NCBI RefSeq assembly: GCF_036971445.1
Contig: NW_027211801.1
Location: 744,001-808,000 of the forward strand
Reading direction: 5' to 3'
From: Narcine bancroftii
Lineage: Eukaryota
DNA length: 64,000 bases
The notes under the pieces were generated by a model. The model made no database searches, was not told the DNA's origin, and saw only the letters and a list, made by a program, of their open reading frames with translations. Positions 2,627 to 59,961 of this stretch are shown here, one piece after another (position 1 is the first letter of the stretch; every line of letters begins with the position of its first letter). The translations under genes were made by a program, and so were the position numbers.

Positions 2627-2660
2627 CCCTTTCAAAAAAAATTCTTTTTGCTAATAAAAT

Positions 2661-2900
2661 TGTAGAGCTCGTCGAAAGAACCAAAGACTTGTTGATCCAA
2701 ACCAAGGCTTTTATTAGCAAAAGACCGGAGCTCTTCACAGGTGGCCGACCAGTCCGGAATGATCCGACCTGGCTAGGGACACAACCCTTTAAGGCCCAAA
2801 CAATAGGTGTGGCTTAGCTCTCAGCCAATCGCTGTAAGCACAGTCTAGATACAGTAACTATATACACTATGTACATTGGTGATAGATCTGTACTATCACA
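2661..2900 (-). repeat. 5' LTR (240 bp) of the Gypsy element
   Basis: Begins TGT and ends ACA; element-sense AATAAA at ~2710-2715; TATA-like CTTAAA at ~2788-2793. Confidence 0.9.
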
Positions 2901-18964: not shown

Positions 18965-20775
18965 CAAATGAGACTGCTAGAAAGCCCATATGACTCACTC
19001 ACTTGCAAAAACCTCCACCTTCCTCATCAAACAACAGGAGTTATCCTTCTTGGTCAAGCTGTTGTCTTAGGTAAACAAAATCCAGGAGTGACCTTTCTGT
19101 GAGCACTTTGTAGAAAGGTCAGAAGCCTTGTAGTTATTCATAGTTATTCATCCAGCCAGGCTGTATCCAATCCAAATTCATTTAATGGCATAATTCAATT
19201 AGCACCTATTTGTGAAATGTGCACAACATTCTCCATAGTTTCTGCAATGTTACTGAAGATGAATTCTTCATTATTTCAATAAGATCTGTATTTAATGTGT
19301 GTATGTATGTAACCTACTCTAATCTTCAATATTTATCTACTCCATTACACTCCCCCTCCTTTAAAGTTATTTTAACTGTTAAAATTCAGTAATAACTAAA
19401 CTCTCTTTAAAATCACTAAAAATATAACAATTAACAATATATACATGTTATAATAAGGTAACAATGTTGAAAGCATTTTTATACATGATCAATTTTAACA
19501 TCTTGACAAACAATCTTCTGATATGAATAATTTGCAGATTATATTATTGTAATATCAAACTCCAGTTTAACAATCTTCTCTTCTTGTTCTTCATTTTATT
19601 CAAAAACACCAGAGAATTGTGGTCAGTAAATACTACAAATGGTTCCTGAGAGATACTGAGATACACATCAAAATTCTGCAGAGCAAACACAATGGACAAC
19701 AGTTCTTTTTCAATAGTGGAATAGTTCATTTGATGAACATTGAATTTCTTTGAAAAGTAGGCAACTGGATGTTCAATTTCATTATGTTTTTGCAATAAAA
19801 CTGAACCTGCTGTTCCCTCACTCATGACCACTGCTATAGAAAGAGGTTCATCAATATCAGGAGATGTAACACAGGATAATGGCATAACATATCCTATTAA
19901 TTTTCTAAATCTGTCTGACACACTTTAGTCCACACAAATTTCTCCCCTTTCATCAAAAGGTTGGCTCGTCAAAAGGAAGAGCAACCTCAGCAAAATTTCT
20001 GCAAAACTTCCTATAATATCCTGCCATTCCTAAAATCCTTCTCACTGCTTTCTTGACATTGGGAAAAGGAACCTCAGAAATTGCATTCACCTTAGCTTGA
20101 ATAGGTGCAGCTTTGCCACAGCCAACTCCATCATCCAAGTATGTTACCATGGCATTTGCAAATTAATTCTTTGCTAAATTAACAGTTAAGTTTGCTTTGG
20201 ATAATCTTGGAAACAATTTGTCCAATTCCTTCAAATGTTCTTCCCATGTGTCACTTTTTGTGACCAAATCATCAATATAAACATCTATATGTGTTAACCT
20301 TTGGATTACTGAATTAATCATCCTCTAGAATGTTGCAGAGGCATTTTTCACGCCAAAAGGTAACACATTATACTTATATAAACCAGATGGAGTAATGAAA
20401 GCTGAAAAATTCTTTCCTCTCTCAGTTAAACGCACACACCAGAAACCAACTCATGAGCTTTCAGTCCTGCTGGTCGAACAGTATCATAATTTGACACTTG
20501 CTTTGTAGTCAATCTACAGGAAGCAATTTGTGCTTTACCCTCCAATACACTTTGGATCATTAAGGACCATTTTTTTCTTTCGACCATCTTGAGCTGTCGG
20601 CGACCTTTAAAAAAGCTGAAAATAAGTATCTATATCTCCCTCATCAAAAGGAGGCACTAGATTGACCTCTCTTCTCGCCAAAAACCTCTCCCCAGGAGTT
20701 ACAGCTTCAGCTTTCTCACATTTAATCCTCTCGACTTTAACCTGTCTTTCAGCTAATTCTAACTCACATATCCTC
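14262..20775 (-). mobile_element. Gmr1-like Gypsy element copy A: 3' LTR (14262-19349, split by a nested element), PPT, RNase H/RT, internally deleted to gag
   Basis: The LTR matches the LTR at 32191; PPT aaaggagggggag at ~19350-19362; HPVAYFSKKF, YSTIEKELL and FTDHNSL lie directly before the 3' LTR with no integrase between; gag piece 20450-20775 matches 31350-31600. Confidence 0.85.
14435..18442 (-). mobile_element. Full-length degenerate Gypsy element nested in the LTR of Gmr1-like copy A
   Basis: Paired ~270 bp LTRs (14435-14703, 18177-18442), GTGT target-site duplication, tRNA-Trp-like PBS (tgtgaccccgacg), PPT, gag, protease FLVDTG, RT, RNase H (DNVVADALS), integrase TTAYHPQSNGLVERFHR. 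Confidence 0.93.
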
Positions 20776-21508
20776 TGTGACCGGGTCGCCCAACTTCCGC
20801 CCCCAGCTCCCCCAAACCTTCCACCACACAGGAGACGGAATCCCTATTCCCAGCTTCCGGTGTGTGTCCCGCTTAAATGTGACCGGGTCGCCCAACTTCC
20901 ACCCCCAGCTCCCCCAAACCTTCCACCCCGCAGGAGACAGAATCCCTATTCCTAGCTTCCGGTGTGTGTCCCGCTTAAATGTGACCGGGTCGCCCAACTT
21001 CCGCCCCCAGCACCCCCAAACCTTCCACCCCACAGGAGACAGAATCCCTATTCCCAGTTTCCGGTGTGTGTCCCGCTTAAATGTGACCAGTCGCCCAACT
21101 TCCACCCCCAGCTCCCCCAAACCTTCCACCCCACAGGAGACGGAATCCGTTTTCCCAGCTTCCGGTGTGTGTCCCGCTTAAATGTGACCGGGTCGCCCAA
21201 CTTCCACCCCCAGCTCCCCCAAAACTTCCACCCCACAGGAGACAGAATCCCTATTCCCAGTTTCCGGTGTGTGTCCCACTTAAATGTAACCAGGTCGCCC
21301 AACTTCCACCCCCAGCTCCCCCAAACCTTCCACCCCACAGGAGACAGAATCACTATTCCCAGCTTCCGGTATGTGTCCCACTTAAATGTGATCGGGTCGC
21401 CCAACTTCCATCCCCAGCTCCCCCAAACCTTCTGCCCCACAGGAGACAGAATCACTATTCCCAGCTTCCGGTGTGTGTCCCACTTAAATGTGACCGGGTC
21501 ACCCAACA
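20776..21508. repeat. 102-bp minisatellite, 7 full units plus a partial unit
   Basis: Units start at 20776, 20878, 20980, 21082, 21183, 21285, 21387 and 21489 with tgtgaccgggtcgcccaacttcc. Confidence 0.97.
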
Positions 21509-21719
21509 TCCCCCCCCCCCCCTCAGCTCGTCCTGCAGGAAACGTGATCCACCTTCCCACTCCTGGCTCGTCCTGTGGTGATTCCGGTGCAGAATTCACT
21601 GCAAAGACCGGCTGCGGATTCTGTCCGCTGGCTTTGCCTTCTCTTAAATAATTCTGGCCACAATCTTCCTCTTGCCCTTCTCTAGCTGCCTCCCCCACCC
21701 ACTTCCCTTCCCCCAGTTG

Positions 21720-29577: not shown

Positions 29578-32500
29578 CAAAATATTCTTTCCTCTCTTAG
29601 TTAGGGGCACACACCTCTAATCCTTCAACAAATCCAACTTGGTAGGAAATTTATCTTTCCCAATTTTATCAATACAGTCATTGATTCTTGAAATAGGAAA
29701 ACTTCTGTTTTAGTTACTGAATTAACCTTCCTGTAATCTGTACAGAACCTAACAGTCCCATTTGGTTTAGGTACCAGAACACAAAGAGAACTCTAATCTG
29801 AGTTTGAAAGTCTAATAATATTATTTTTCAACATGATTTTGCTCTTCTGAATGGTTATTCTATATAGGTGTTGTTTTATGAGACTTGCCTCTCCCACATC
29901 CACATCATGAGAAAACACAGATGTAATTTTTGGCACTTCAGGAAACAAACTTGTATGTTTCAAAATTAATTCTTACAATTGCATTTTTTCTTGTGGCTTA
30001 AGATGGTCCAACTTTTCCTCCAGATTTTCCAACATTGCTGAGTTAGGCAGGTGCACAGGAATTATGGTTTTATTAAGGTTTCCCTCACAAGATTCTGTTT
30101 CTATAATTTTATGATTCATAAGTTCCACAACCCTGTCAACAACTCACATCTCTGATACAGTACCTTTCCACTACCTTTTTCCTCTAAATAAGCTTTGAAG
30201 CCATTTCTTTAATCTCCTATTCACTTACTGCTTTGTCCCTTAAGTCAATAAGATCTGAATCTGTTTTCTGGTGCTGAATTCACTCTTTCCTTTACAAAGA
30301 GAAATATTTACTATCACAATTGACTTGCTCTTTCAAGACTATTTCAGAAGCACTGGGAAAATCTCTTATTATCTGGATCTTCCTCTGCTCTCATCATTTT
30401 CTTAGACAAAGACCGTGTTACGGCACATGCAGGATATATCTCACCATCCTCTTTAACCTCATCCTTACTAGGCCAATTTGTTAATCTCAAAACTGACCAA
30501 ACTTTATCTGCTGCTAAATCATTCCCTAATAAAAATGGGACTCCTTGCATGGATAACTTTGAAATTACTCTTATTGCAACAGGTCCTTTAACTAATACTG
30601 AATTCAGCACTATGTTATGAAGAGATATTGCCTCTACCTCACCTCCAACACCTTTAATCAAAGTCCTTTCCCCGTGTCAGCCTTTTGATCAAGAGTTAAA
30701 ATATTTTCCAACAACAATCACTGAGCAGCCCCAGTATCTCATAATTTTAACTGGAACCTGTGATTCTCCCTCCTTTACTGAAACCAGGCCCTCTGTCACA
30801 AAGGGTTTGAAAATATCCATAACACCCTTACCAGGTTTGGAACATCTGCTCTCCTTAAATTCAACTGTCTGAATACAAGCTTCTGGTAAAACCTTCTTTT
30901 CTCATCTCTTTCCAACACTAAACAACTTGCAATAACGTGACCAGGTTTCTTACAAAAATGACATAGAAATCTAGAAATTCTGTCCTTTCCCACCTTTCAT
31001 TCATCTTTTCTCTTAACTTTCTTCCCAGACTTAATTTCAGGTTTAATAATCTGTTCCACATTAACTCACTGAAAATGCCAACTATTTTGAAATTTATTTT
31101 TCTTAATCAGGGCAAATTCATCTACTAATCTTGCCGTTTGCTGCCATGTCTCCACATCTCTCTCATTCAGGTATAATTTAATCTCATTTGGAGCACACCT
31201 TTTAATTTCCTCAATTAATATCAGTTCTATTCATCTGTCAAAATCACTATTTATTCCACCAACAGACAAAATATACAGATTTTCCAGAGCAAAATCCATA
31301 TAAAGTTGGCTCCATGTTTTCACCAAACTCCTCAATTTTGTCTATATGCTTCTGGAACGAACTCATAAGCTTTAACTACTGCTTGTTTAACAGTATCATA
31401 ATTTGCCACTTGCTCTGTAGTCAAGGTAGAGGAGGCAATTTGTGCTTTTCCCTTCAATACACTTTGGAGCATTAGAGGCCATTTTTCTTTTAGCCATCTT
31501 GAGCTCTCAGCAACCTTTTCAAAAAGCTGAAAATGTGCCCTCATCAAAAGGAGGAACTAGATTTACCTCTCTACCAGTCAAAAACATCTCCTCAGGAGTT
31601 GCAGACTCGATTCTCTTACCTCCCTCCGTCTCCATTTTTAACCTCTAATTGAAACTGTCTATCCATTTCAATTTCCTCCTTCCGTTTTTGAACCTCCTCT
31701 CATTGTTTTTAAGCTTCTCTTTATTTTACAGCTTGGTCTGCCTCATATTATTGTCCGTGCAACTCAAAGTTCCGTTTCTCTTTCTTCCATCCCCCTCTGT
31801 TTCTCTCTTTCCTCTTCCACCCTCAATTTCTCCAACTCCAATTGCAATTCAAAAGATCTATCCTTTGAAAAATTATCTGTCTTTCTCACAAATGATCCCT
31901 CACCTATATAGTATTTCACTATAATTCTCTGTATTTGTATTTTCCTCATCCAATGGTTGACTTCAGTCAGCTTTAATGCCTTAGAAATGGCCATCGATTC
32001 CTCTTTTCTCTTGCTCTGCAGCTCTGATGGTTTTGACAAAAACATGTCAACATCCATTGCTGCTGTTTTCCCACACACACAAGCTTTAAATTAGCTTAAA
32101 AAAAAACAATTAACTAATAAATTACAAAAACTTCAAACGTTTAAGATCCCAAACCTCCGATGTTCAATCCAAGATAATGAGCCCCCCAAATGTGACGAGC
32201 CCAGAGGACACCAAAACCCAGCAGCAATATTCACCAAGACAAATGGTTACTTAAACAAAAGTTGCTTTTAATTATCTTTAAACGTGAAAATAGAATCGTT
32301 CTTTTAAGTTAAGTTAAGCTAATTCTAAGCGCAGGTATAAGTAATATATATGTAATTTCAGAAAAGTTCTTTGATTCACAGTCCATTCTCACTTCTCACT
32401 CCTCCAAGTTCACTGGTTGCAGGCAATTCTTATTTTGTGCACAGAATTAAACATTTATGAATTTCACCAGGCTTTGGTTCTTGAAAGGTAAATGGTTACT

Positions 32501-32650
32501 GCTCAGGAAGGCTCTTGTTGGGTTTCAGATAGGGATTTGTTGTTCGCTGAACACCCACAAAACTGATTCCTGTTAATCAGCCACGTTTCTTGCTGAAGAA
32601 ACTTTCCTCATCAGGGTTCTCCAGATGACCGCTTCCACAATGGCTTGAGC
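29578..32650 (-). mobile_element. Gmr1-like Gypsy copy B: partial 5' LTR (32191-~32650), PBS, gag, protease, RT start; integrase deleted
   Basis: tRNA-Pro-like PBS tggggggctc next to the LTR; gag WPLMLQSVLKGKAQ...AYEFVPEAYRQ, CHFCKKPGHVIASC, LLGNDLA; RT N-terminus at 29580-29950. Confidence 0.88.
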
Positions 32651-32949
32651 CTCTGTAAAATATAAAGTGTTCACAATCACTACTCTGGAGACAAAGTCTT
32701 GGAGAACAGGTTCAGCTTTATTTCAAGTCTGCAGAGTCGGGTGCCTCTGGTCTGGAGACATACCGGAGGATCAGAATCATCACTCTTTTGTACAGTCTCG
32801 GGCTCAATAACTCCCCACCTTCATCTACCTTCTTCCAATCAGAATCTTAGTACATTACAATCTTCTTCTTCTTCCTTCCATCAATCCAAGTATCACTCAG
32901 TTCCTCCTTCTTCAGATATTGCATGTTATGTTAATTAGTTCATTCCATC

Positions 32950-34070
32950 CTTATCGTACGCCTTCTGCCCACGCTTGTTGCATCAGTCTTCACTCGGAAC
33001 GCAATCGTCTCATCTCTGGACCGCAGGATTGCTTTTGCAATCTGGTCCCTAATATCTGTGAAGGCTTTGATAGCTGCTGGGCAGAGGGGGAAAGCTGAGG
33101 CTTTTATGAGTGGGCGAACTTTGTCAGCAGAGTTGGAGACCCATTGTGCATAATATGCGAAAAGTCCTAAACATCTCTTTCAGGTTTTCTGTGTGAGTGG
33201 GACTGGGAGGTCTAGGAATGGGTACGGGCAGGCAGGGTCCGGTCCGGGCTGATATTCCCCATTCTGTTCCACATATCCAGTTACCTCGTGCTAAAGACAC
33301 ATTTGTCCCTATTATACATTAGGTTGGGTTCCTCTGCTGTCTGAAAAAAACGTTGAAGGTTAATGTCATGCTTGCGAGTGACCACATGCCAAATCATCCC
33401 TTCCCCTTGCGGACACTTGGACCTGGGGAAGCGTGTGTGCCCTCTGGGAAATTGGGGTTAGCCGGGGGTGTCTCAAGGATAGCAACACATCCAGGCAATC
33501 CTGGCAGTAGATTGTGATCGGGAAGGCAACTTATCCTACGCCTTCTGCCCGCGCTTGTCACGATCCTTGATTATAAGTCAGAAACACGGGCGGTTGCATG
33601 GCCAGTCCAAGCCCTAGTGAATTAACTAACAGGCGGGGCTCTTGGCTGCTCTTTAACTGGTTCAACATACTTCTGTCCCCCTTGTAGTTGACGGTCACTG
33701 GGCGAGTCTTTCTCTCCACCGCAATTTTGGTCCCGCAGCTCTGCATCTGGGCTCTACTGGATTGCACATGCGTGGGAGCCATCTCCGTTTCCAGGCCTTT
33801 TGATCAGGTTTTGGTGGAGTCGAGAGCGTGGGTGAGGGCAGAAGTAACTTCCATCCTGGTTATATGTTATTCTATTAAGTTGTGACTAACATCAACCCCA
33901 CGAGACAGAGTGCGTTAAACTCTAGTTTTAATAGACTAATATATACAGCTAACTCTTGCTTCTGTGCAAGCCTAGGTCAGAACGGAGGAGCCTATGACTG
34001 GTCGGCTTTATAGACGAGGTTGTCAGGTGGTGGTCCTGGTGACCTAGTCATGTAATAGCATATCAACACA
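32950..34070 (-). mobile_element. Heavily deleted Gypsy element of the same lineage as 1-2900, with 5' LTR at 33881-34070
   Basis: LKRCLGLFAYYAQWV...FRVKTDA (RT/RNase H); NLMYNRDKCVFS parallels NLTYNLDKCVFR at 115-150; 190 bp TG...CA LTR. Confidence 0.82.
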
Positions 34071-34949
34071 ATGTATTCTCGACATATAAATGCAGAAGAT
34101 TTTTTCACAAAGGGATCAGTTCGGGGGCCTATTCTTTGGAGGTTAAAAGAATGGTGTCCTTAGAGCATAGAACATTCAACACTACAGCATAGTAGAGGCC
34201 CTTATGCCCTCAATGTTGTGCAGACCCATATATTCCATCCAAAATCAAGTACTAAACCATTCCTGTTTTGTGTCCCTCTCTTTTTCTCTCATCTAGGTGC
34301 CTGTCTAAGGGTCTCTTAAATCCCCACAGAAGGGAGGCAGTACCCACTTTCGGAATCACTAGGCAATGCTAACTGTGCCACCCTGTGGACAAAGGTGCTG
34401 AATCTGTAGAATTTGTTATTGCAGAGGAATGCAGAGGAAGATCCCGGCAAGGATCTCAGATGGAGGGAGTTGTGTTGTTTTCAAATTGAGGTATTGAGGG
34501 TGACAGGGAACTGGCCCAGAAGAGGAGCTGATCAGTTGATCAAAGATCAGTTGTGAGGAGAACTGAATGGCGGGAAGGTTTGAGGGACCTAGTGGTCTAT
34601 TCCTGCTCCAATTTCTTGTGCTCTTGTGTTTTCTAATGTAGGATCAATCCTTATTCTTCATTTGGTGGATGGAGTTCAGAGTAGTATAATTGACCATTGG
34701 AACTTGTGGTTGGACTTGTTCTGGTTAGGAATACTATGGAAAAGAAACCCTTAAAAAGTGGTTTCCTTTTGAAAGTTTCTGGGACAAAACATAGCATAGA
34801 CCTCTTTCATGAAGAGACTTTCTAATCTTAGCTCCCTCTTCTTAACTGTTGGTGTAAAGTAGATTGACCCTTTCTTCTGCAAGGTGAAGGATGTGAATGT
34901 GTCATAGGTTGGAGGATGCTCTGTAACAGAATTTACTATCTTCCACCTA

Positions 34950-35520
34950 TCTTCAGTTCCAACCCAATACTGTACTCCCCAAATGTGATCTACCCAGCAA
35001 GAAGTCAATGCAATCCTTTGGTGTTCCATAAATGGACCCTGAATGGTGATGTCCTGGTCAGTCTGCCCATAAGGCACTGCCCACAGGACATCCGTGTAGG
35101 GATCCACCATTGTCCTGGGAGTTGGAGCTTAAGGGGATAGAGAAGAACACATTGTCGAGGTTGACCACAGCATAGAAGGGTTTGTCGCCCCTTCCCATTA
35201 TATCCTCCACCAATTTGACCATGTTGGAAACAACTGCAGTAAGGGTGGAGCAGGGGTGAATTTGTCCAATTTGTGATATTATTCACCACATGCTGTTTTT
35301 CCTACAGAAAGGCCAGATTGGGCTGTTGTTGGGGGACACAGTGGAACATCACTCCCCCTCATAGAGGAGGGCATTGATCACTTCCCCGATCTCCTCATAG
35401 CCCCCGGCACCCGATCCAGGTGGGTGCAGACTACCTGGGAGGGAGGGGCAATGACAAGAGGAGTCCACCTGACTGCCCCGACAACAGTGGTTGGCGGGAG
35501 ACCCTTAAATATAAACTGCC
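34950..35520 (-). mobile_element. Class III (ERV-L/ERV-S-like) endogenous retrovirus pol relic with internal deletions
   Basis: VRWTPLVIAPPSQVV...RVPG-YEEIGEVINALLYEG...SPNNSPIWP...LTAVVSNMVKLVEDI resembles the ERV-L RT N-terminus (SPFNSPIWPV...AAAVPDVVSLLEQI); VVDPYTDVLWAVP resembles the integrase core. Confidence 0.65.
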
Positions 35521-35846
35521 CCTTGAGTACATTCATTCCGAGAATGTAGGGGTTGGGGTCTCATTGTGACATCAGAGTGACCGAGTAAATATTGTGAGGT
35601 TGCCATGGTTTCACTTGTCTTTCTGTATTATTGTGTAACATTGAACCCATTGATGACATCACGCAGCCAGTAAACCCAGTTGGTGAGGCTGCAGTCGTGT
35701 TCATTGTGAGGGTTGAACATGGTGCGAGTGCGTGGCACAGTCTTTGCTGAATACCTGGGCTTTTTGGCCAAGTGAGGCTCGTGGTGGTGATGTAGTTGAA
35801 TTACTACATCACATGTCACTGAAAACACCTCACGTGTGACATGCAG

Positions 35847-44711: not shown

Positions 44712-46105
44712 GTATGAACACTTCCGGGTGTTTTGGACAAGTGCACGTTCGAACAATTGGAAAAATATTTTGGATTGGATTTTTCATCAGAACCTCTGAT
44801 CAGTACAGATTTGATGAAAGGCGACTGATTAATTTAACTTAACTAACACAAGTTCCAAATAAGGTTGAATTGAATTTTGATTGTCTTCTCCCAATCATAT
44901 ACAAAGATCTACCAGATCCTCTTTCTAAATCAGTCCTTTCTGTTCTTTGCTCTGGTCAAGTCATGCACGTCAGGAGAGATGATGGCAATATGATTAACTC
45001 GTTAGTGAAGGGGGAGTTATTGATGATGATCACAGAAACCCTGCACTAGCAATCTCACCATGGCAGCTTCGTGACAAAAACTGTTCACCTAAGTAATGCT
45101 GTTTTGTCATCTAATCTGGACATTGATGTTGTTTAGGGAAGAACCTCCTCTCCTATGTTGAGGAGTCCAGGCTCCCAGTCATGTGATTAACTCTTTATAT
45201 CCCTTTGAATTGGCCACGTAAGCTATTCTGAACCAAAAAGGGATGAAAAAGTATACACCACCGGAATAAATTCTGGTGGAGCAACGTCACCGTTTATCCA
45301 CTCAACCCGGCCAGATCCTTCTGCGGTTCTGGGAATGGGTTTGGAACAGAGAGTGAGTAAGGCTACACCCCCTCGCTGCCACAACTTACTTATTGTCGAG
45401 GCATCTGTTGGTGACAGCAGGAGCAGAAACTACTGCCACAGTACTGCCATTTTACTCCAAGGGCTCCCTCAATTCTGGGGTGTGGTATCCCCATTGTGCC
45501 AAATGGTATAGATTCAGAATAACTTGACTTCTGGAATCACAGTGGCCAAAAGGTACTATGGAGCTCTAGCATATGCTGTCCATCCATCATCTGAGGCATT
45601 CATTCTCTCCACTGAGGTGGTCCAGTATCCTATCACCAGAGTGAACGACATGTACTCGACTCCAACAATATGTCCAAACAGGTGTCATCTGACATTGAGA
45701 GGGACGTGCGGTAGATGCGTAGGAACACTACTACCTGCTGATTCCCCTCCGCATTCCTTTCTAACTGGGAAACATATTGCCATTTATTCTCCATCTCAGG
45801 GGCTAAATTCAATACTCCCACCCTTACAACTTTGTAGGAGGACCTTGACAAGAAGCACGACAGCTATTCAAGAAGGTGGTCCATGATGACATGGCCGGCA
45901 GTGAGGCAGAACTAATCAGTTTGGGGCCTGGCAGTGACACCTGCATCTTGAAACACTAATGTGCAAATGACAATGACCCAGAATGTTTTCACTAAAATAG
46001 GGATAGATTTTCATGTTTGTCATTCCATAATATGCAGTGCTCAAGTCAGATTTGAATAGTTAAAAAAGAGCAAAGATCTTTAAACATTTGCCAATTGGTG
46101 TTAGT

Positions 46106-48156
46106 TTTTTTTTTTCTTTGGCTTGGCTTCGCGGACGAAGATTTATGGAGGGGGTAAAAAGTCCACGTCAGCTGCAGGCTCGTTTGTGGCTGACCAGTCC
46201 GATGCGGGACAGGCAGACACGATTGCAGCGGTTGCAAGGGAAAATTGGTTGGTTGGGGTTGGGTGTTGGGTTTTTCCTCCTTTGCCTTTTGTCAGTGAGG
46301 TGGGCTCTGCGGTCTTCTTCAAAGGAGGCTGCTGCCCGCCAAACTGTGAGGCGCCAAGATGCACGGTTTGAGGCGTTATCAGCCCACTGGCGGTGGTCAA
46401 TGTGGCAGGCACCAAGAGATTTCTTTAGGCAGTCCTTGTACCTTTTCTTTGGTGCACCTCTGTCACGGTGGCCAGTGGAGAGCTCGCCATATAATACGAT
46501 CTTGGGAAGGCGATGGTCCTCCATTCTGGAGACGTGACCCATCCAGCGCAGCTGGATCTTCAGCAGCGTGGACTCGATGCTGTCGACCTCTGCCATCTCG
46601 AGTACCTCGACGTTAGGGGTGTGAGCGCTCCAATGGATGTTGAGGATGGAGCGGAGACAACGCTGGTGGAAGCGTTCTAGGAGCCGTAGGTGGTGCCGGT
46701 AGAGGACCCATGATTCGGAGCCGAACAGGAGTGTGGGTATGACAACGGCTCTGTATACGCTTATCTTTGTGAGGTTTTTCAGTTGGTTGTTTTTCCAGAC
46801 TCTTTTGTGTAGTCTTCCAAAGGCGCTATTTGCCTTGGCGAGTCTGTTGTCTATCTCATTGTCGATCCTTGCATCTGATGAAATGGTGCAGCCGAGATAG
46901 GTAAACTGGTTGACCGTTTTGAGTTTTGTGTGCCCGATGGAGATGTGGGGGGGCTGGTAGTCATGGTGGGGAGCTGGCTGATGGAGGACCTCAGTTTTCT
47001 TCAGGCTGACTTCCAGGCCAAACATTTTGGCAGTTTCCGCAAAGCAGGACGTCAAGCGCTGAAGAGCTGGCTCTGAATGGGCAACTAAAGCGGCATCATC
47101 TGCAAAGAGTAGTTCACGGACAAGTTTCTCTTGTGTCTTGGTGTGAGCTTGCAGGCGCCTCAGATTGAAGAGACTGCCATCCGTGCGGTACCGGATGTAA
47201 ACAGCGTCTTCATTGTTGGGGTCTTTCATGGCTTGGTTCAGCATCATGCTGAAGAAGATTGAAAAGAGGGTTGGTGCGAGAACACAGCCTTGCTTCACGC
47301 CATTGTTAATGGAGAAGGGTTCAGAGAGCTCATTGCTGTATCTGACCCGACCTTGTTGGTTTTCGTGCAGTTGGATAATCATGTTGAGGAACTTTGGGGG
47401 ACATCCGATGCGCTCTAGTATTTGCCAAAGCCCTTTCCTGCTCACGGTGTCGAAGGCTTTGGTGAGGTCAACAAAGGTGATGTAGAGTCCTTTGTTTTGT
47501 TCTCTGCACTTTTCTTGGAGCTGTCTGAGGGCAAAGACCATGTCAGTGGTTCCTCTGTTTGCGCGAAAGCCGCACTGTGATTCTGGGAGAATATTCTCAG
47601 CGACACTAGGTATTATTCTATTTAGTAGAATCCTAGCGAAGATTTTGCCTGCAATGGAGAGCAACGTGATTCCCCTGTAGTTTGAGCAGTCTGATTTCTC
47701 GCCTTTGTTTTTGTACAGGGTGATGATGGTGGCATCACGAAGATCCTGCGGCAGTTTTCCTTGGTCCCAACAAAGCTTGAAAAACTCATGCAGTTTGGCA
47801 TGCAGAGTTTTGCCGCCAGCCTTCCAGACTTCTGGGGGGATTCCATCCATACCTGCTGCTTTGCCACTTTTCAGTTGTTCGATTGCCTTATATGTCTCAT
47901 CCAGGGTGGGAACCTCATCCAGCTCTAGCCTTAGGGGCTGTTGAGGGAGCTGGAGCAGGGCGGAATCTTGGACTGAGCGGTTGGTACTGAAAAGAGATTG
48001 GAAGTGTTCTGACCATCGGTTGAGGATGGAGATCTTGTCGCTGAGGAGGACTTTGCCGTCTGAGCTGCGCAGCGGGCTTTGGACTTGGGGTGAGGGGCCG
48101 TACACAGCCTTTAGAGCCTCGTAGAAACCCCTGAAGTCGCCAATGTCCGCGCTGAG
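46106..48156 (-). mobile_element. Young 5'-truncated RTE-clade LINE; uninterrupted 645-aa RT frame at 46168-48105
   Basis: NYRGITLLS, QCGFR, FVDLTKAFD, GVKQGCVLAPTLF, LFADD, C-terminal C2H-type finger; 3' hairpin plus (CCAAG)n/poly(A) tail; TTAGT TSD. Confidence 0.96.
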
Positions 48157-55706: not shown

Positions 55707-58700
55707 GGCAGGCAGAGGCCCCGATCCGGGCAGAGAGTTGGAGGCGGCGGCCCCAGTCCGGGCACAGGGAGAGCTGCGGCGGCCTCGGCCCCGGACCGGG
55801 CAGCATGGACCGACCTAGGAGGGGAGGCAGACCCCTCCAGCCCGGGTAAGAAACCTGCATAGGAGAAGGCCACTCCGATATAAAACCTACGACCCAAGGA
55901 CCTCGCTGCCACGTCCCAGCTTGCTTGGCCACGGCACACGAACCATGGGTGTAAAGGGTGGGGCCAGTACTGCGCGCACTGCACTCCACCTAAAAGCTCC
56001 TTTGCGCAGGCCCGAGGACAGGTCCACGTCCTCCCCCTCCACGTTCTCCCCCTTCACGTCCTCCCCCTCCACGTCCTCCCCTTCAAAAGATGCTCACAAA
56101 CTCAAGCTAGCATGCTGGAACATCAGAACCATGCTAGACAAGGCTGACAGCCACCGACCTGAACGTCGGTCTGCCCTCATTGCACATGAACTCCTCAGAC
56201 TTGACATCGACATAGCCGCACTGAGTGAAGTCCTCCTGGCAGATGTAGGCAGCCTCCAGGAACGCGGCGCGGGCTACACACTCTACTGGTCTGGCAAGCC
56301 TTCGGATGAACGACGCCTATCTGGTGTAGGCTTCATGGTCAAGAACTTCATTGCCTCCAAACTCGAAAACCTTCCGACAGGCCACTCGGACCGAATCATG
56401 TCCATGCGACTCCCCCTTCAAAACAAGCGTTGCATCACCCTCATCAGTGTCTATGCTCCAACCCTCCAGGCGGAACCAGCAGAAAAGGACAAGTCCTACA
56501 CTGACCTGCGCAACTTCATCCAATGCACCCCTTCAGCCGACAAGGTTGTCATCCTTGGCGACTTCAACGCTCGCGTCGGCAAAGACTCAGAAACCTGGCC
56601 AGGAATCCTGGGCAAGCATGGCGTCGGCAAGTGCAACGACAATGGGCGCCTCCTGTTGGAGCTCTGCGCAGAACAGCGGCTTGTCATTTCAAACACCCTT
56701 TTTCAGCAGAGGGACAGCCTTAAGACCACCTGGATGAATCCCCGATCCAAACACTGGCACCTCCTGGACTACATCCTGGTGCGAGAAAGAGACAAACGAG
56801 ATGTGCTCCACACCAGGGTCATGCCCAGCGCGGAATGCCACACTGACCACCGGCTGGTTCGCTGCAAGCTCAACCTTCACTTCAAGCCAAAGCCCAGGAA
56901 CAGTAAAGCCCCCAGAAAGAGGTTCAATGATGGAAACCTGCAGTCAGACGAAGCGAGAGGAAACTTCCAGGCAAACCTCAAAGCAAAGCTCGACGATGCA
57001 ACCCGCCTCACGGACCCGTCCCCTGAAACCCTCTGGGATCAGTTGAAGACTACCATACTGCAATCCACTGAAGAGGTTCTGGGCTTCTCCTCCAGGAAAA
57101 ACAAGGACTGGTTCGACGAAAACAGCCAGGAAATCCAGGAGCTGCTGGCAAAGAAGCGAGCTGCCCACCAGGCTCACCTTACAAAGCCGTCCTGTCCAGA
57201 GAAGAAACAAGCCTTCTGTTGCGCATGCAGCCATCTTCAGCGAAAACTCCGGGAGATCCAAAATGAGTGGTGGACTAGCCTCGCCAAACGAACCCAGCTC
57301 AGCGCGGACATTGGCGACTTCAGGGGTTTCTACGAGGCTCTAAAGGCTGTGTACGGCCCCTCACCCCAAGTCCAAAGCCCGCTGCGCAGCTCAGACGGCA
57401 AAGTCCTCCTCAGAGACAAGATCTCCATCCTCAACCGATGGTCAGAACACTTCCAATCTCTTTTCAGTGCCAACCGCTCAGTCCAAGATTCCGCCCTGCT
57501 CCAGCTCCCTCAACAGCCCCTAAGGCTAGAGCTGGATGAGGTCCTCACCCAGGATGAGACATATAAGGCAATCGAACAACTGAAAAGTGGCAAAGCAGCA
57601 GGTCTGGATGGAATCCCCCCCAGAGGCCTGGAAGGCTGGCGGCAAAACTCTGCATGTCAAACTGCATGAGTTTTTCAAGCTTTGTTGGGACCAAGGAAAA
57701 CTGCCTCAGGACCTTCGTGATGCCACCATCATCACCCTGTACAAAAACAAAGGCGAGAAATCAGACTGCTCAAACTACAGGGGAATCACGCTGCTCTCCA
57801 TTGCAGGCAAAATCTTCGCTAGGATTCTACTAAATAGAATAATACCTATTGTCGCCGAGAATATTCTCCCAGAATCACAGTGCGGCTTTCGCGCAAACAG
57901 AGGAACTACTGACATGGTCTTTGCCCTCAGACAGCTCCAAGAAAAGTGCAGAGAACAAAACAAAGGACTCTACATCACCTTTGTTGAACTGCCTTCGACA
58001 CCGTGAGCAGGAAAGGGCTTTGGCAAATACTAGAGTGCATCGGATGTCCCCCAAAGTTCCTCAACATGATTATCCAACTGCACGAAAACCAACAAGGTCG
58101 GGTCAGATACAGCAATGAGCTCTCTGAACCCTTCTCCATTAACAATGGCGTGAAGCAAGGCTGTGTTCTCGCACCAACCCTCTTTTCAATCTTCTTCAGC
58201 ATGATGCTGAACCAAGCCATGAAAGACCTCAACAGTGAAGACGCTGTTTACATCCGGTACCGCACGGATGGCAGTCTCTTCAATCTGAGGCGCCTGCAAG
58301 CTCACACCAAGACACAAGAGAAACTTGTCCGTGAACTACTCTTTGCAGACGATGCCGCTTTAGATCCAGCTCTTCAGCGCTTGACGTCCTGCTTTGCGGA
58401 AACTGCCAAAATGTTTGGCCTGGAAGTCAGCCTGAAGAAAACTGAGGTCCTCCATCAGCCAGCTCCCCACCATGACTACCAGCCCCCCCACATCTCCATC
58501 GGGCACACAAAACTCAAAACGGTCAACCAGTTTACCTATCTCGGCATCACCATTTCATCAGATGCAAGGATCGACAATGAGATAGACAACAGACTCGCCA
58601 AGGCAAATAGCGCCTTTGGAAGACTACACAAAAGAGTCTGGAAAAACAATCAACTGAAAAACCTCACAAAGATAAGCGTATACAGAGCCGTTGTCATACC

Positions 58701-59320
58701 CACACTCCTGTTCGGCTCCGAATCATGGGTCCTCTACCGGCATCACCTACGGCTCCTAGAACGCTTCCACCAGCGTTGTTTCCGCTCCATCCTCAACATC
58801 CATTGGAGCGCTTTCATCCCTAACGTCGAAGTACTCGAGACGGCAGAGGTCGACAGCATCGAGTCCACGCTGCTGAAGATCCAGCTGCGCTGGGTGGGTC
58901 ACGTCTCCAAAATGGAGGACCATCGCCTTCCCAAGATCGTGTTATATGGCAAGCTCTCCACTGGCCACCGTGACAGAGGTGCACCAAAGAAAAGGTACAA
59001 GGACTGCCTAAAGAAATCTCTTGGTGCCTGCCACATTGACCACCGCCAGTGGGCTGATATCGCCTCAAACCGTGCATGTTGGCGCCTCACAGTTTGGCGG
59101 GCAGCAACCTCCTTTGAAGAAGACCGCAGAGCCCACCTCACTGACAAAAGGCAAAGGAGGAAAAACCCAACACCCAACCCCAACCAACCAATTTTCCCCT
59201 GCAGCCGCTGCAACCGTGTATGCCTGTCCCGCATCGGACTTGTCAGCCACAAACGAGCCTGCAGCTGACGTGGACTTTTACCCCCTCCATAAATCTTCGT
59301 CCGCGAAACCAAGCCAAAGA
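55707..59320 (+). mobile_element. Near-full-length RTE-clade LINE (APE + RT), two frameshifts
   Basis: WNIRT, SVYAPT, GDFNA, TDHRLV (endonuclease) and LFADD (RT). Relative to the 46-48 kb copy: +1 C at ~57620, a 7-bp deletion at ~57990 and a 12-bp deletion at ~58362. Confidence 0.96.
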
Positions 59321-59961
59321 AGGAATATAAATAGAGGGTATGTAGAAATGGTAGAGGGATAAGCATTGTGCATTTACCAAGTGTGAACCTCTGGCAAACA
59401 TGAACCCAAGGAAGTGTTTGGAGCTGTGATGGCTCAAAGACCTACAATGAGAGGGGATTTCTCATGCTGTGCTGTGAGGCACTGAAAATCCATGCATCTG
59501 AGCACCCGAAGGGTGGGAGACAGTTCTGGTGAGAACGGTAGCAGCTGCTCTCAGAGTCTTCACTGTTCATCTCTCTTCTCTATTCTTTGTTGTTCTTGCT
59601 CATCCCCAGCTCCAACTCCCCCCACTTCACCTGCTCCTCTCGATGAGGAAAAGGCCATTTGCACAAGAAAATGGAGAGAGAATTGTGCAAATCTCGTTTC
59701 CTTTCCACTGTTCCTCATTTCACTCGTCTGCTATTTTACACTGATTCCCTCCAAACTTTTTTCATTCCTTGTTCACCCTTTTTCTCCTACTTTTCCCTCG
59801 TCATCTTCTATTCTGCATTGCTTTAAATAATACTAAACCCTCAGTTCACCTTTCTCCAAAACAAAAAATATGTTTGTTTTGATGAATACACCGGAACCTT
59901 GTGGTAAATCTTTGAAGACACTTTTAAATGTATGTGTAATAAAACCTTGTGTTCCTTTTAG

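Follow-up and report, generated by a model that had tools for sequence, protein, structure and literature searches.

A leader/LTR helix at the primer-binding position of a chromodomain-less animal Gypsy lineage, a probable self-primer for reverse transcription

In an animal Gypsy lineage without a chromodomain, the leader that follows the 5′ LTR forms a helix with a block inside that LTR, and analysis of this helix indicates that it probably serves as a self-primer for reverse transcription, replacing the tRNA. The leader arm of the helix starts at position +2 after the LTR, its two arms change together from family to family, and the TGG of a tRNA-type primer-binding site (PBS) is absent. Self-priming from an LTR/PBS duplex is established for Tf1 (PMC7175516, PMC10085805); in the literature consulted, Tf1 is the only element for which it has been shown, and among Gypsy elements it is treated as a mark of the Tf1/sushi chromovirus branch. 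It has been described for Tf1/sushi chromoviruses (PMC10085805, PMC4600332) and predicted for plant Tcn1 and for TAR copia elements (PMC6317226). In the literature searched, self-priming was not found described for any animal Gypsy lineage outside the chromoviruses, and entries in Repbase, Dfam and GyDB may already note the pairing. One member of the lineage lies in the 64,000-nucleotide stretch of the Narcine bancroftii genome analyzed here (the window). A preliminary description of the window had recognized the complementarity and named no mechanism; the evidence presented here points to self-priming, and the earlier interpretation as a whole is partly supported. The features concerned are the following.

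33881..34070, minus strand: 5′ LTR, 190 bp with TG...CA ends, belonging to an old Gypsy family; sister copies have the same LTR twice, a polypurine tract (PPT) and a 5-bp target-site duplication (TSD).
34007..34014, minus strand: TATA box, one base decayed in the window copy (TATAAA at 34012-34007).
33979..33985, minus strand: initiator-like site, from sequence and the alignment of copies.
33949..33975, minus strand: small 5′ hairpin in R, upstream of the block, predicted by RNA folds of the window copy and four sister copies.
33927..33945, minus strand: LTR block complementary to the leader, ending in ATTAAA (33932-33927); predicted 3′ part of the self-primer.
33881..33926, minus strand: loop of the duplex (end of R plus U5), with an inner stem containing G-U pairs, from folds; putative template for the minus strong-stop DNA of about 47 nt.
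33861..33879, minus strand: leader arm occupying the PBS position, from +2 to +20 past the CA of the LTR, no TGG.
33390..33854, minus strand: ATG at +27 and a decayed reading-frame-like stretch preceding the gag-homologous region (about 550-590 nt in full-length copies).
32976..33370, minus strand: broken C-terminus of reverse transcriptase (RT), connection and start of RNase H (tblastn, 52% and 44-46% identity to Pol of the 2661 family).
2646..2900, minus strand: comparison element (2661 family), with a 240-bp 5′ LTR (2661-2900), block (2709-2722) and leader arm (2646-2659) forming 14 perfect pairs.

The window locus belongs to an old Gypsy family with 5-bp TSDs and is itself decayed and internally deleted. 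Its LTR ends (TG at 34070, CA at 33881) were fixed by comparison with sister copies in which two LTRs, a PPT and 5-bp target duplications are present; a leader of 26 nt comes next on the minus strand, and then the ATG. The TATAAA motif at 34012-34007 lies 62 nt upstream of the block, and by the TATA-Inr spacing rule transcription is predicted to start at 33983, 31 nt past the TATA box, at a base that is A in sister copies and G in the window. A TATA-like word precedes the hexamer by 77-87 nt in 6 of 8 folded copies from shark and ray genomes and was not found in 7 folded metagenome copies; the predicted start is based on TATA/Inr motifs seen in shark and ray families only. The interval from before gag into RT, about 1.9 kb, is deleted at about 33395-33380, the remnant at 33284-32976 is 52% identical to Pol of the 2661 family (E 1e-27), and the element is cut off below 32976. 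A search of Rfam gave no match at 33700-34200, and no tRNA gene was found within the window.

Between the leader ATG and the gag-homologous region, this family has an insert of 550-590 nt, represented in the window copy (33854-33390) and in loci L064, L067, L068, L069 and L073. The frame from the leader ATG is similar among copies of the family over 100-180 codons and had no matches among 120 homologous polyproteins; it is possibly an N-terminal extension of Gag or a separate upstream frame. Elsewhere, the window contains two inverted copies of one element (46102-48156 and 57298-59333; 97-99% identity, long frames) and a tandem array with a 102-bp period (20674-21584).

Pairing of the leader with the LTR at the window locus was confirmed as a real feature. 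Of 18 leader positions (33878-33861), 16 are paired with the block at 33945-33928, and 47 nt separate the end of the block from the end of the LTR; these values, like the positions of ATTAAA (33932-33927) and of TATAAA 62 nt upstream, agree with the preliminary description. The match also survived the shuffled controls proposed there, as 16/18 was reached by none of 1000 dinucleotide shuffles of the LTR and by 1 of 1000 shuffles of the leader. When real 190-nt tiles of the window were used, only 2 of 669 exceeded 14 matches (16 and 18), and we infer that these are the LTR itself and the opposite strand of the leader. In this decayed copy the longest uninterrupted run is 8 bp and folding is unreliable, the duplex being absent from one of two folds (z 0.58) and formed in the other.

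In a DNA search of the 3.3-Gb N. bancroftii genome, 40 of 813 candidates were scored and 30 loci obtained. Of 19 extended copies, 8 have a pair of LTRs, spaced by 1.3-6.4 kb, and a purine run that precedes the 3′ LTR; the 5-bp target duplications of these 8 match at 4-5 of 5 bases in seven and at 3 of 5 in L072. Since the 5′ and 3′ LTRs are only 90-93% identical in the 6 copies measured, the family is old. Full-length copies have the order PR-RT-RNase H-integrase (tblastn), and L062 (1981-3334) is a 1.35-kb two-LTR miniature with target duplication and leader intact. The window insertion itself lies within a block (window 32200-35600) that has been duplicated at least 12 times, with copies on four contigs and identities of 80-99%; the other duplicated-block loci are L002, L003, L004, L006, L007, L010, L012 and L022-L025. 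Because the window insertion and these 11 loci go back to a single insertion that segmental duplication has multiplied (8 were checked directly, and 3 are identical to one of the 8), a count of 18 independent insertions replaced an earlier per-copy count of 27 rows.

Over the 19-bp duplex (33945-33927 with 33861-33879), these 18 insertions have 323 Watson-Crick pairs among 342, together with 12 mismatches, 2 G-U pairs and 5 gaps, and 8 copies are perfect. Taken together, the copies of the family show neither a TGG-type PBS nor weaker complementarity, either of which had been named as evidence against the pairing. The three positions mismatched in the window copy are paired in 15, 16 and 18 of the 18 insertions; the mismatches are decay, and the expectation that they would revert to pairs in a wider sample was borne out. 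Departures from the commonest letter, counted over the 27 rows, amount to 3.5% in the block and 4.5% in the leader; in U3 and in the sequence that follows the leader the figure is 11%. The 18 insertions include two double changes, both of which restore a pair. Individual copies differ in how far the changes are mirrored: in L020 the changed base is present in both LTRs and in the leader, in L017 a change is common to the 5′ LTR and the leader and absent from the 3′ LTR, and in L028 a change occurs in both LTRs with the leader unchanged.

The second family in the window provides a comparison with a younger element. This 2661-family element has one frame of 1429 codons with two CCHC knuckles and PR-RT-RH-IN domains (Pfam). 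Copies of this frame vary in length from about 1395 to 1540 codons, and in this element an Ala/Thr-rich repeat lies in frame at 1317-1735, between the Gag knuckles and the protease. As had been stated before, its LTR (2661-2900) has no evident primary similarity to the 190-bp LTR (no significant plus-strand match; best 15/18, E 0.77), although the RT remnant belongs to the same lineage by identity and by tree grouping. Among 90 junctions from 150 fetched loci of subfamilies related to the 2661 family, three block types are found, each with its own leader type, in 32, 10 and 22 copies; a double substitution and a matched indel set them apart. Both sides were typed in 70 junctions, of which 5 are unmatched, 3 of them owing to one shared U-G pair; these type counts refer to the 150 fetched loci. 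In the whole genome, the gag of one young family gave 16,607 first-look candidates.

We then compared elements from a wider range of sources. An alignment of 35 polyproteins led to 94 loci fetched from viral, metagenome and MAG contigs, and two other gag queries added further families from the N. bancroftii genome. In the viral contigs the gag query had no relative and the polyprotein alignment gave one distant locus. Loci L162-L170, L172 and L173 are animal-type Gypsy elements in contigs filed as bacterial MAGs, which are probably host DNA. A 3′ LTR defines the LTR end in 19 elements; L087, L095, L102 and L130, whose ends could not be set by this rule, were excluded. In 14 of the 19 the longest perfect run begins at +2, and in the remaining 5 it begins at +3 or +4. 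These runs measure 4-19 bp, the short ones belonging to decayed copies, and none of the 19 elements starts with TGG. All six tRNA-PBS controls have TGG within 5 nt and a perfect run of just 3-7 bp. Three of these come from the window (18160, 32180 and 48698) and had been put forward as internal controls, a use that held; they are nonetheless weaker than stated, as the LTRs of 18160 and 32180 are related (87% over 172 nt).

The pairing follows the family rather than a common sequence. With one representative for each of 11 families, the perfect run between cognate block and leader averages 14.3 bp (8-19), compared with 5.7 bp (maximum 11) for 110 swapped pairs, and the cognate sum was reached by none of 100000 permutations; the representatives were hand-picked as well preserved, which biases this matrix toward perfect runs, and two family pairs share short LTR similarity. 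In representatives likewise picked as well preserved, with the same bias, the duplex contains 0 G-U pairs among 151, compared with 16 among 115 in the U5 stems of the same folds (Fisher p 8e-7). In a scan that used no anchor and covered those 33 of the 94 loci in which a gag start is preceded by 150 nt of sequence, a run of at least 10 bp was found in 27 relatives and a shorter one in 6, raw counts in which several loci are copies of one family; in 21 of the 27 paired relatives the run directly follows CAA or CAAT. The start of the leader arm at +2 after the CA and the end of the block in TAAA are the fixed features. By these sequence comparisons, the pairing is lineage-wide and conserved with different letters in each family, and it is selected and covarying. 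The earlier argument for selection on structure is thereby upheld, in that swapped partners do not pair (14.3 versus 5.7 bp) and the mismatches are pairs in most sister copies.

The spacing between block and LTR end behaves differently. A fixed distance of 47-48 nt, proposed as a conserved feature, was rejected: it holds for the two window LTRs only, and the distance is 47-52 nt within the window's family and ranges over 21-70 nt in the lineage as a whole. In 21 of the 27 paired relatives the block is followed by the four bases GCCT, ACCT or GCCA, which are possibly a determinant of cutting or simply the context of the poly(A) site.

That the leader changes in step with the LTR also bears on whether an unrecognized tRNA fragment or another host small RNA acts as the primer, with the LTR match being secondary. 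Half-tRNA priming is known in copia lineages (PMC6317226, PMC10886601), but the variable part of the leader changes with the LTR between families, even between close subfamilies, and a host RNA could not follow such changes; we therefore regard a host primer as very improbable. It is similarly hard to believe that the inverted repeat is kept by a neutral process at the DNA level, such as template switching or recombination between the arms, without any function of the RNA. Some observations do fit such a process, namely a genomic copy (L202) in which the U5 loop is inverted between the arms, a contig ending at window 2646 with a junction of the same type, and the change that L017 shares between 5′ LTR and leader and lacks in its 3′ LTR. 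It leaves unexplained, however, why the arm sits at the exact PBS position in every family, why a tRNA PBS is missing, and why the pairing is conserved from shark and ray families to metagenome relatives with unalignable LTRs. The L202-type junction equals the one predicted between primer and minus strand, and plain recombination between the arms gives the same product. At the 96 LTR ends in the fetched loci no run reached 20 bp, that is, no over-copied primer was found there.

The relation between the helix and the poly(A) signal requires more attention. Among the 27 paired relatives, the hexamer at the end of the block is AATAAA or ATTAAA in 18 and non-canonical (GTTAAA, TTTAAA or GTGAAA) in 9, and in L083 and L084 the non-canonical hexamer is paired while a canonical one is free in the loop. 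The overlap with a poly(A) signal reported for the window LTR is thus frequent in the lineage and not required. The hexamer could be hidden by the helix in the 5′ LTR, the only LTR followed by the leader, with priming carried out by another RNA. Its predicted probability of being unpaired is 0.00-0.07 in 14 of 15 folds that include the leader (0.26 in the window copy) and 0.26-0.98 in the LTR alone, and retroviruses with the signal in R need suppression of this kind (PMC12789967). Against hiding as the whole function stand the 9 relatives that pair through a non-canonical hexamer, including the two with the canonical one free, and such a function leaves the missing tRNA PBS, the fixed +2 start and the absence of G-U pairs unexplained. 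We favor Tf1-like self-priming over poly(A) masking alone because of the lack of G-U pairs, the covariation in substitutions and indels and the pairing without a canonical hexamer; masking with a separate primer is an unlikely explanation, and masking as a side benefit of the helix is likely, as judged from the modeled folds.

For self-priming, the leader arm is at the PBS position and in primer polarity, the 3′ end at the block edge facing the last bases of U5. In four intact copies of the window's family the predicted fold energy is −44 to −53 kcal/mol, compared with −26 to −32 kcal/mol with a shuffled leader. In the proposed mechanism the transcript would start about 38 nt upstream of the block, at the start suggested by the TATA/Inr motifs, which would place the small hairpin, followed by the block, within the first 57 nt. 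The block would fold onto the leader, the element's RNase H would cut within the TAAA run that forms the block's 3′ edge, and RT would extend the cut end across U5, yielding a minus strong-stop DNA of about 47 nt. The stretch of 15-25 nt from the cut to the poly(A) site, an estimate that uses the hexamer-to-poly(A)-site distance of PMC12789967, would constitute a short R for strand transfer. Plus-strand synthesis would then copy the block back into the PBS, and such re-copying would keep the two arms strict Watson-Crick complements, which fits the lack of G-U pairs and the matched block and leader types. In Tf1, about half of the cDNA carries a PBS copied from the primer (PMC11042837). As a by-product, the same helix would mask the poly(A) hexamer, and would do so only in the 5′ LTR. 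Against the model stand the wobbles and mismatches of individual copies, the change in L028 that its leader does not mirror, the 6 relatives with short runs and the predicted position of the block inside R; contigs from four sequencing runs showed no transcript start, end or poly(A) junction.

A variant of self-priming would use the copy of the block in the 3′ R, from the same or a co-packaged RNA, trimmed back from the poly(A) tail. If the predicted start is right, R contains the block and both ends of the RNA carry it, the copy at the 3′ end has no neighboring partner, and the end of the primer would coincide with the poly(A) signal. Yet the 5′ copy can pair locally across a loop of 21-70 nt in a strong predicted fold, and the inner stem by the junction resembles one of the Tf1 duplexes (PMC10085805), so that we give this route little chance, and priming from the 5′ copy is the reading pursued below.

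The layout resembles, in several respects, that of Tf1 and Tf2 of Schizosaccharomyces pombe and of the Tf1/sushi group, which have no tRNA PBS and a post-LTR sequence complementary to the LTR in primer polarity (PMC7175516, PMC10085805, PMC4600332). In Tf1 the mRNA's initial 11 bases are paired with the PBS and the RNase H cut comes after them (PMC7175516), and a second stem joins U5 to sequence after the primer, as it does here. In contrast, the duplex comprises 13-19 bp in the lineage compared with 11 in Tf1, the block is predicted to lie about 38 nt inside R and not at the mRNA 5′ end, and it ends in TAAA, usually a poly(A) hexamer, unlike in Tf1. Our predicted folds have a central duplex and an inner U5 stem, whereas the outer stem involves sequence that lies upstream of the block; as modeled, the fold is therefore a nested hairpin rather than the three-duplex pretzel of Tf1. 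Self-priming has likewise been deduced from LTR-PBS complementarity for plant Tcn1 (gypsy) and for TAR, Houba and Osr-1 (copia), cases which indicate that the mechanism arose more than once (PMC6317226); those lineages differ from the present one in having plant hosts and in belonging, one to Tf1/sushi and one to copia. HIV-1 and other retroviruses also have a hexamer in R that is predicted to be hidden in a 5′-end helix, but their hairpin is formed within the LTR and they are primed by tRNA, whereas here the partner is the PBS position, which follows the 5′ LTR only (PMC12789967).

With respect to classification, the elements have the PR-RT-RNase H-integrase order, the TG...CA LTR pair, the PPT and the target-site duplication of Ty3/Gypsy elements. 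They share with Tf1/sushi a PBS position complementary to the own LTR without a tRNA PBS, and they lack the chromodomain at the integrase C-terminus of that group: none was found in 35 polyproteins or in the Pfam annotation of 120 listed homologues, and a Chromo search of the N. bancroftii genome gave 16 loci, none with pol. In view of the missing chromodomain, the lineage was kept out of Tf1/sushi. In a quick RT tree, 22 rows labeled as pairing and one unexamined row fall on one side of a branch with support 100, a grouping that is partly by construction since the loci were fetched with lineage motifs, and in which some labels were set by eye and L141 has lost its block; the window remnant groups with its family, inside a group of support 97 that includes the 2661 family. 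RT is 32-33% identical to that of the sampled tRNA-PBS Gypsy elements, and the best matches in the PDB were Ty3 RT (E 2e-40), without a near relative.

Mag-type and other tRNA-primed animal Gypsy elements have a single gag-pol frame, two CCHC knuckles in Gag, short LTRs and a 5-bp TSD, and the lineage resembles the Mag type in these features. Unlike Mag-type and other tRNA-primed Gypsy elements, it has no TGG-type PBS after the 5′ LTR. Clades are listed in PMC6238403; in the literature searched, the motifs of the lineage had only unrelated matches, and names in the Atlas were generic. Among the matches listed, the nearest named homologues are shark and ray proteins (79-81%), and others come from sea anemone, corals and Trichuris. 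Judged by protein names, the hosts thus include corals, a sea anemone, a nematode and cartilaginous fish, in contrast to those of Tf1/sushi.

Taking these observations together, it is conceivable, though we put it forward only tentatively, that this lineage, whose hosts range from corals to sharks and rays, arrived at self-priming independently of Tf1/sushi. The primer would be a capped fragment of 50-57 nt, consisting of the small hairpin and an annealing arm of 13-19 nt, tRNA-like in size and cut at the element's own poly(A) hexamer; one helix would prime, hide the 5′ poly(A) signal and fix where a very short functional R starts, and the PBS would be rewritten from the LTR in each cycle. The layout predicts a cut at the TAAA edge, a strong-stop DNA of about 47 nt and a functional R of 15-25 nt. 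The window copy is dead, and its value is that of an independent point of covariation. If the proposal is true, a second, chromodomain-less and very abundant animal lineage would point to repeated loss of dependence on tRNA, and such elements would be expected to escape silencing targeted at the tRNA PBS and to be missed by annotation tools that require a PBS.
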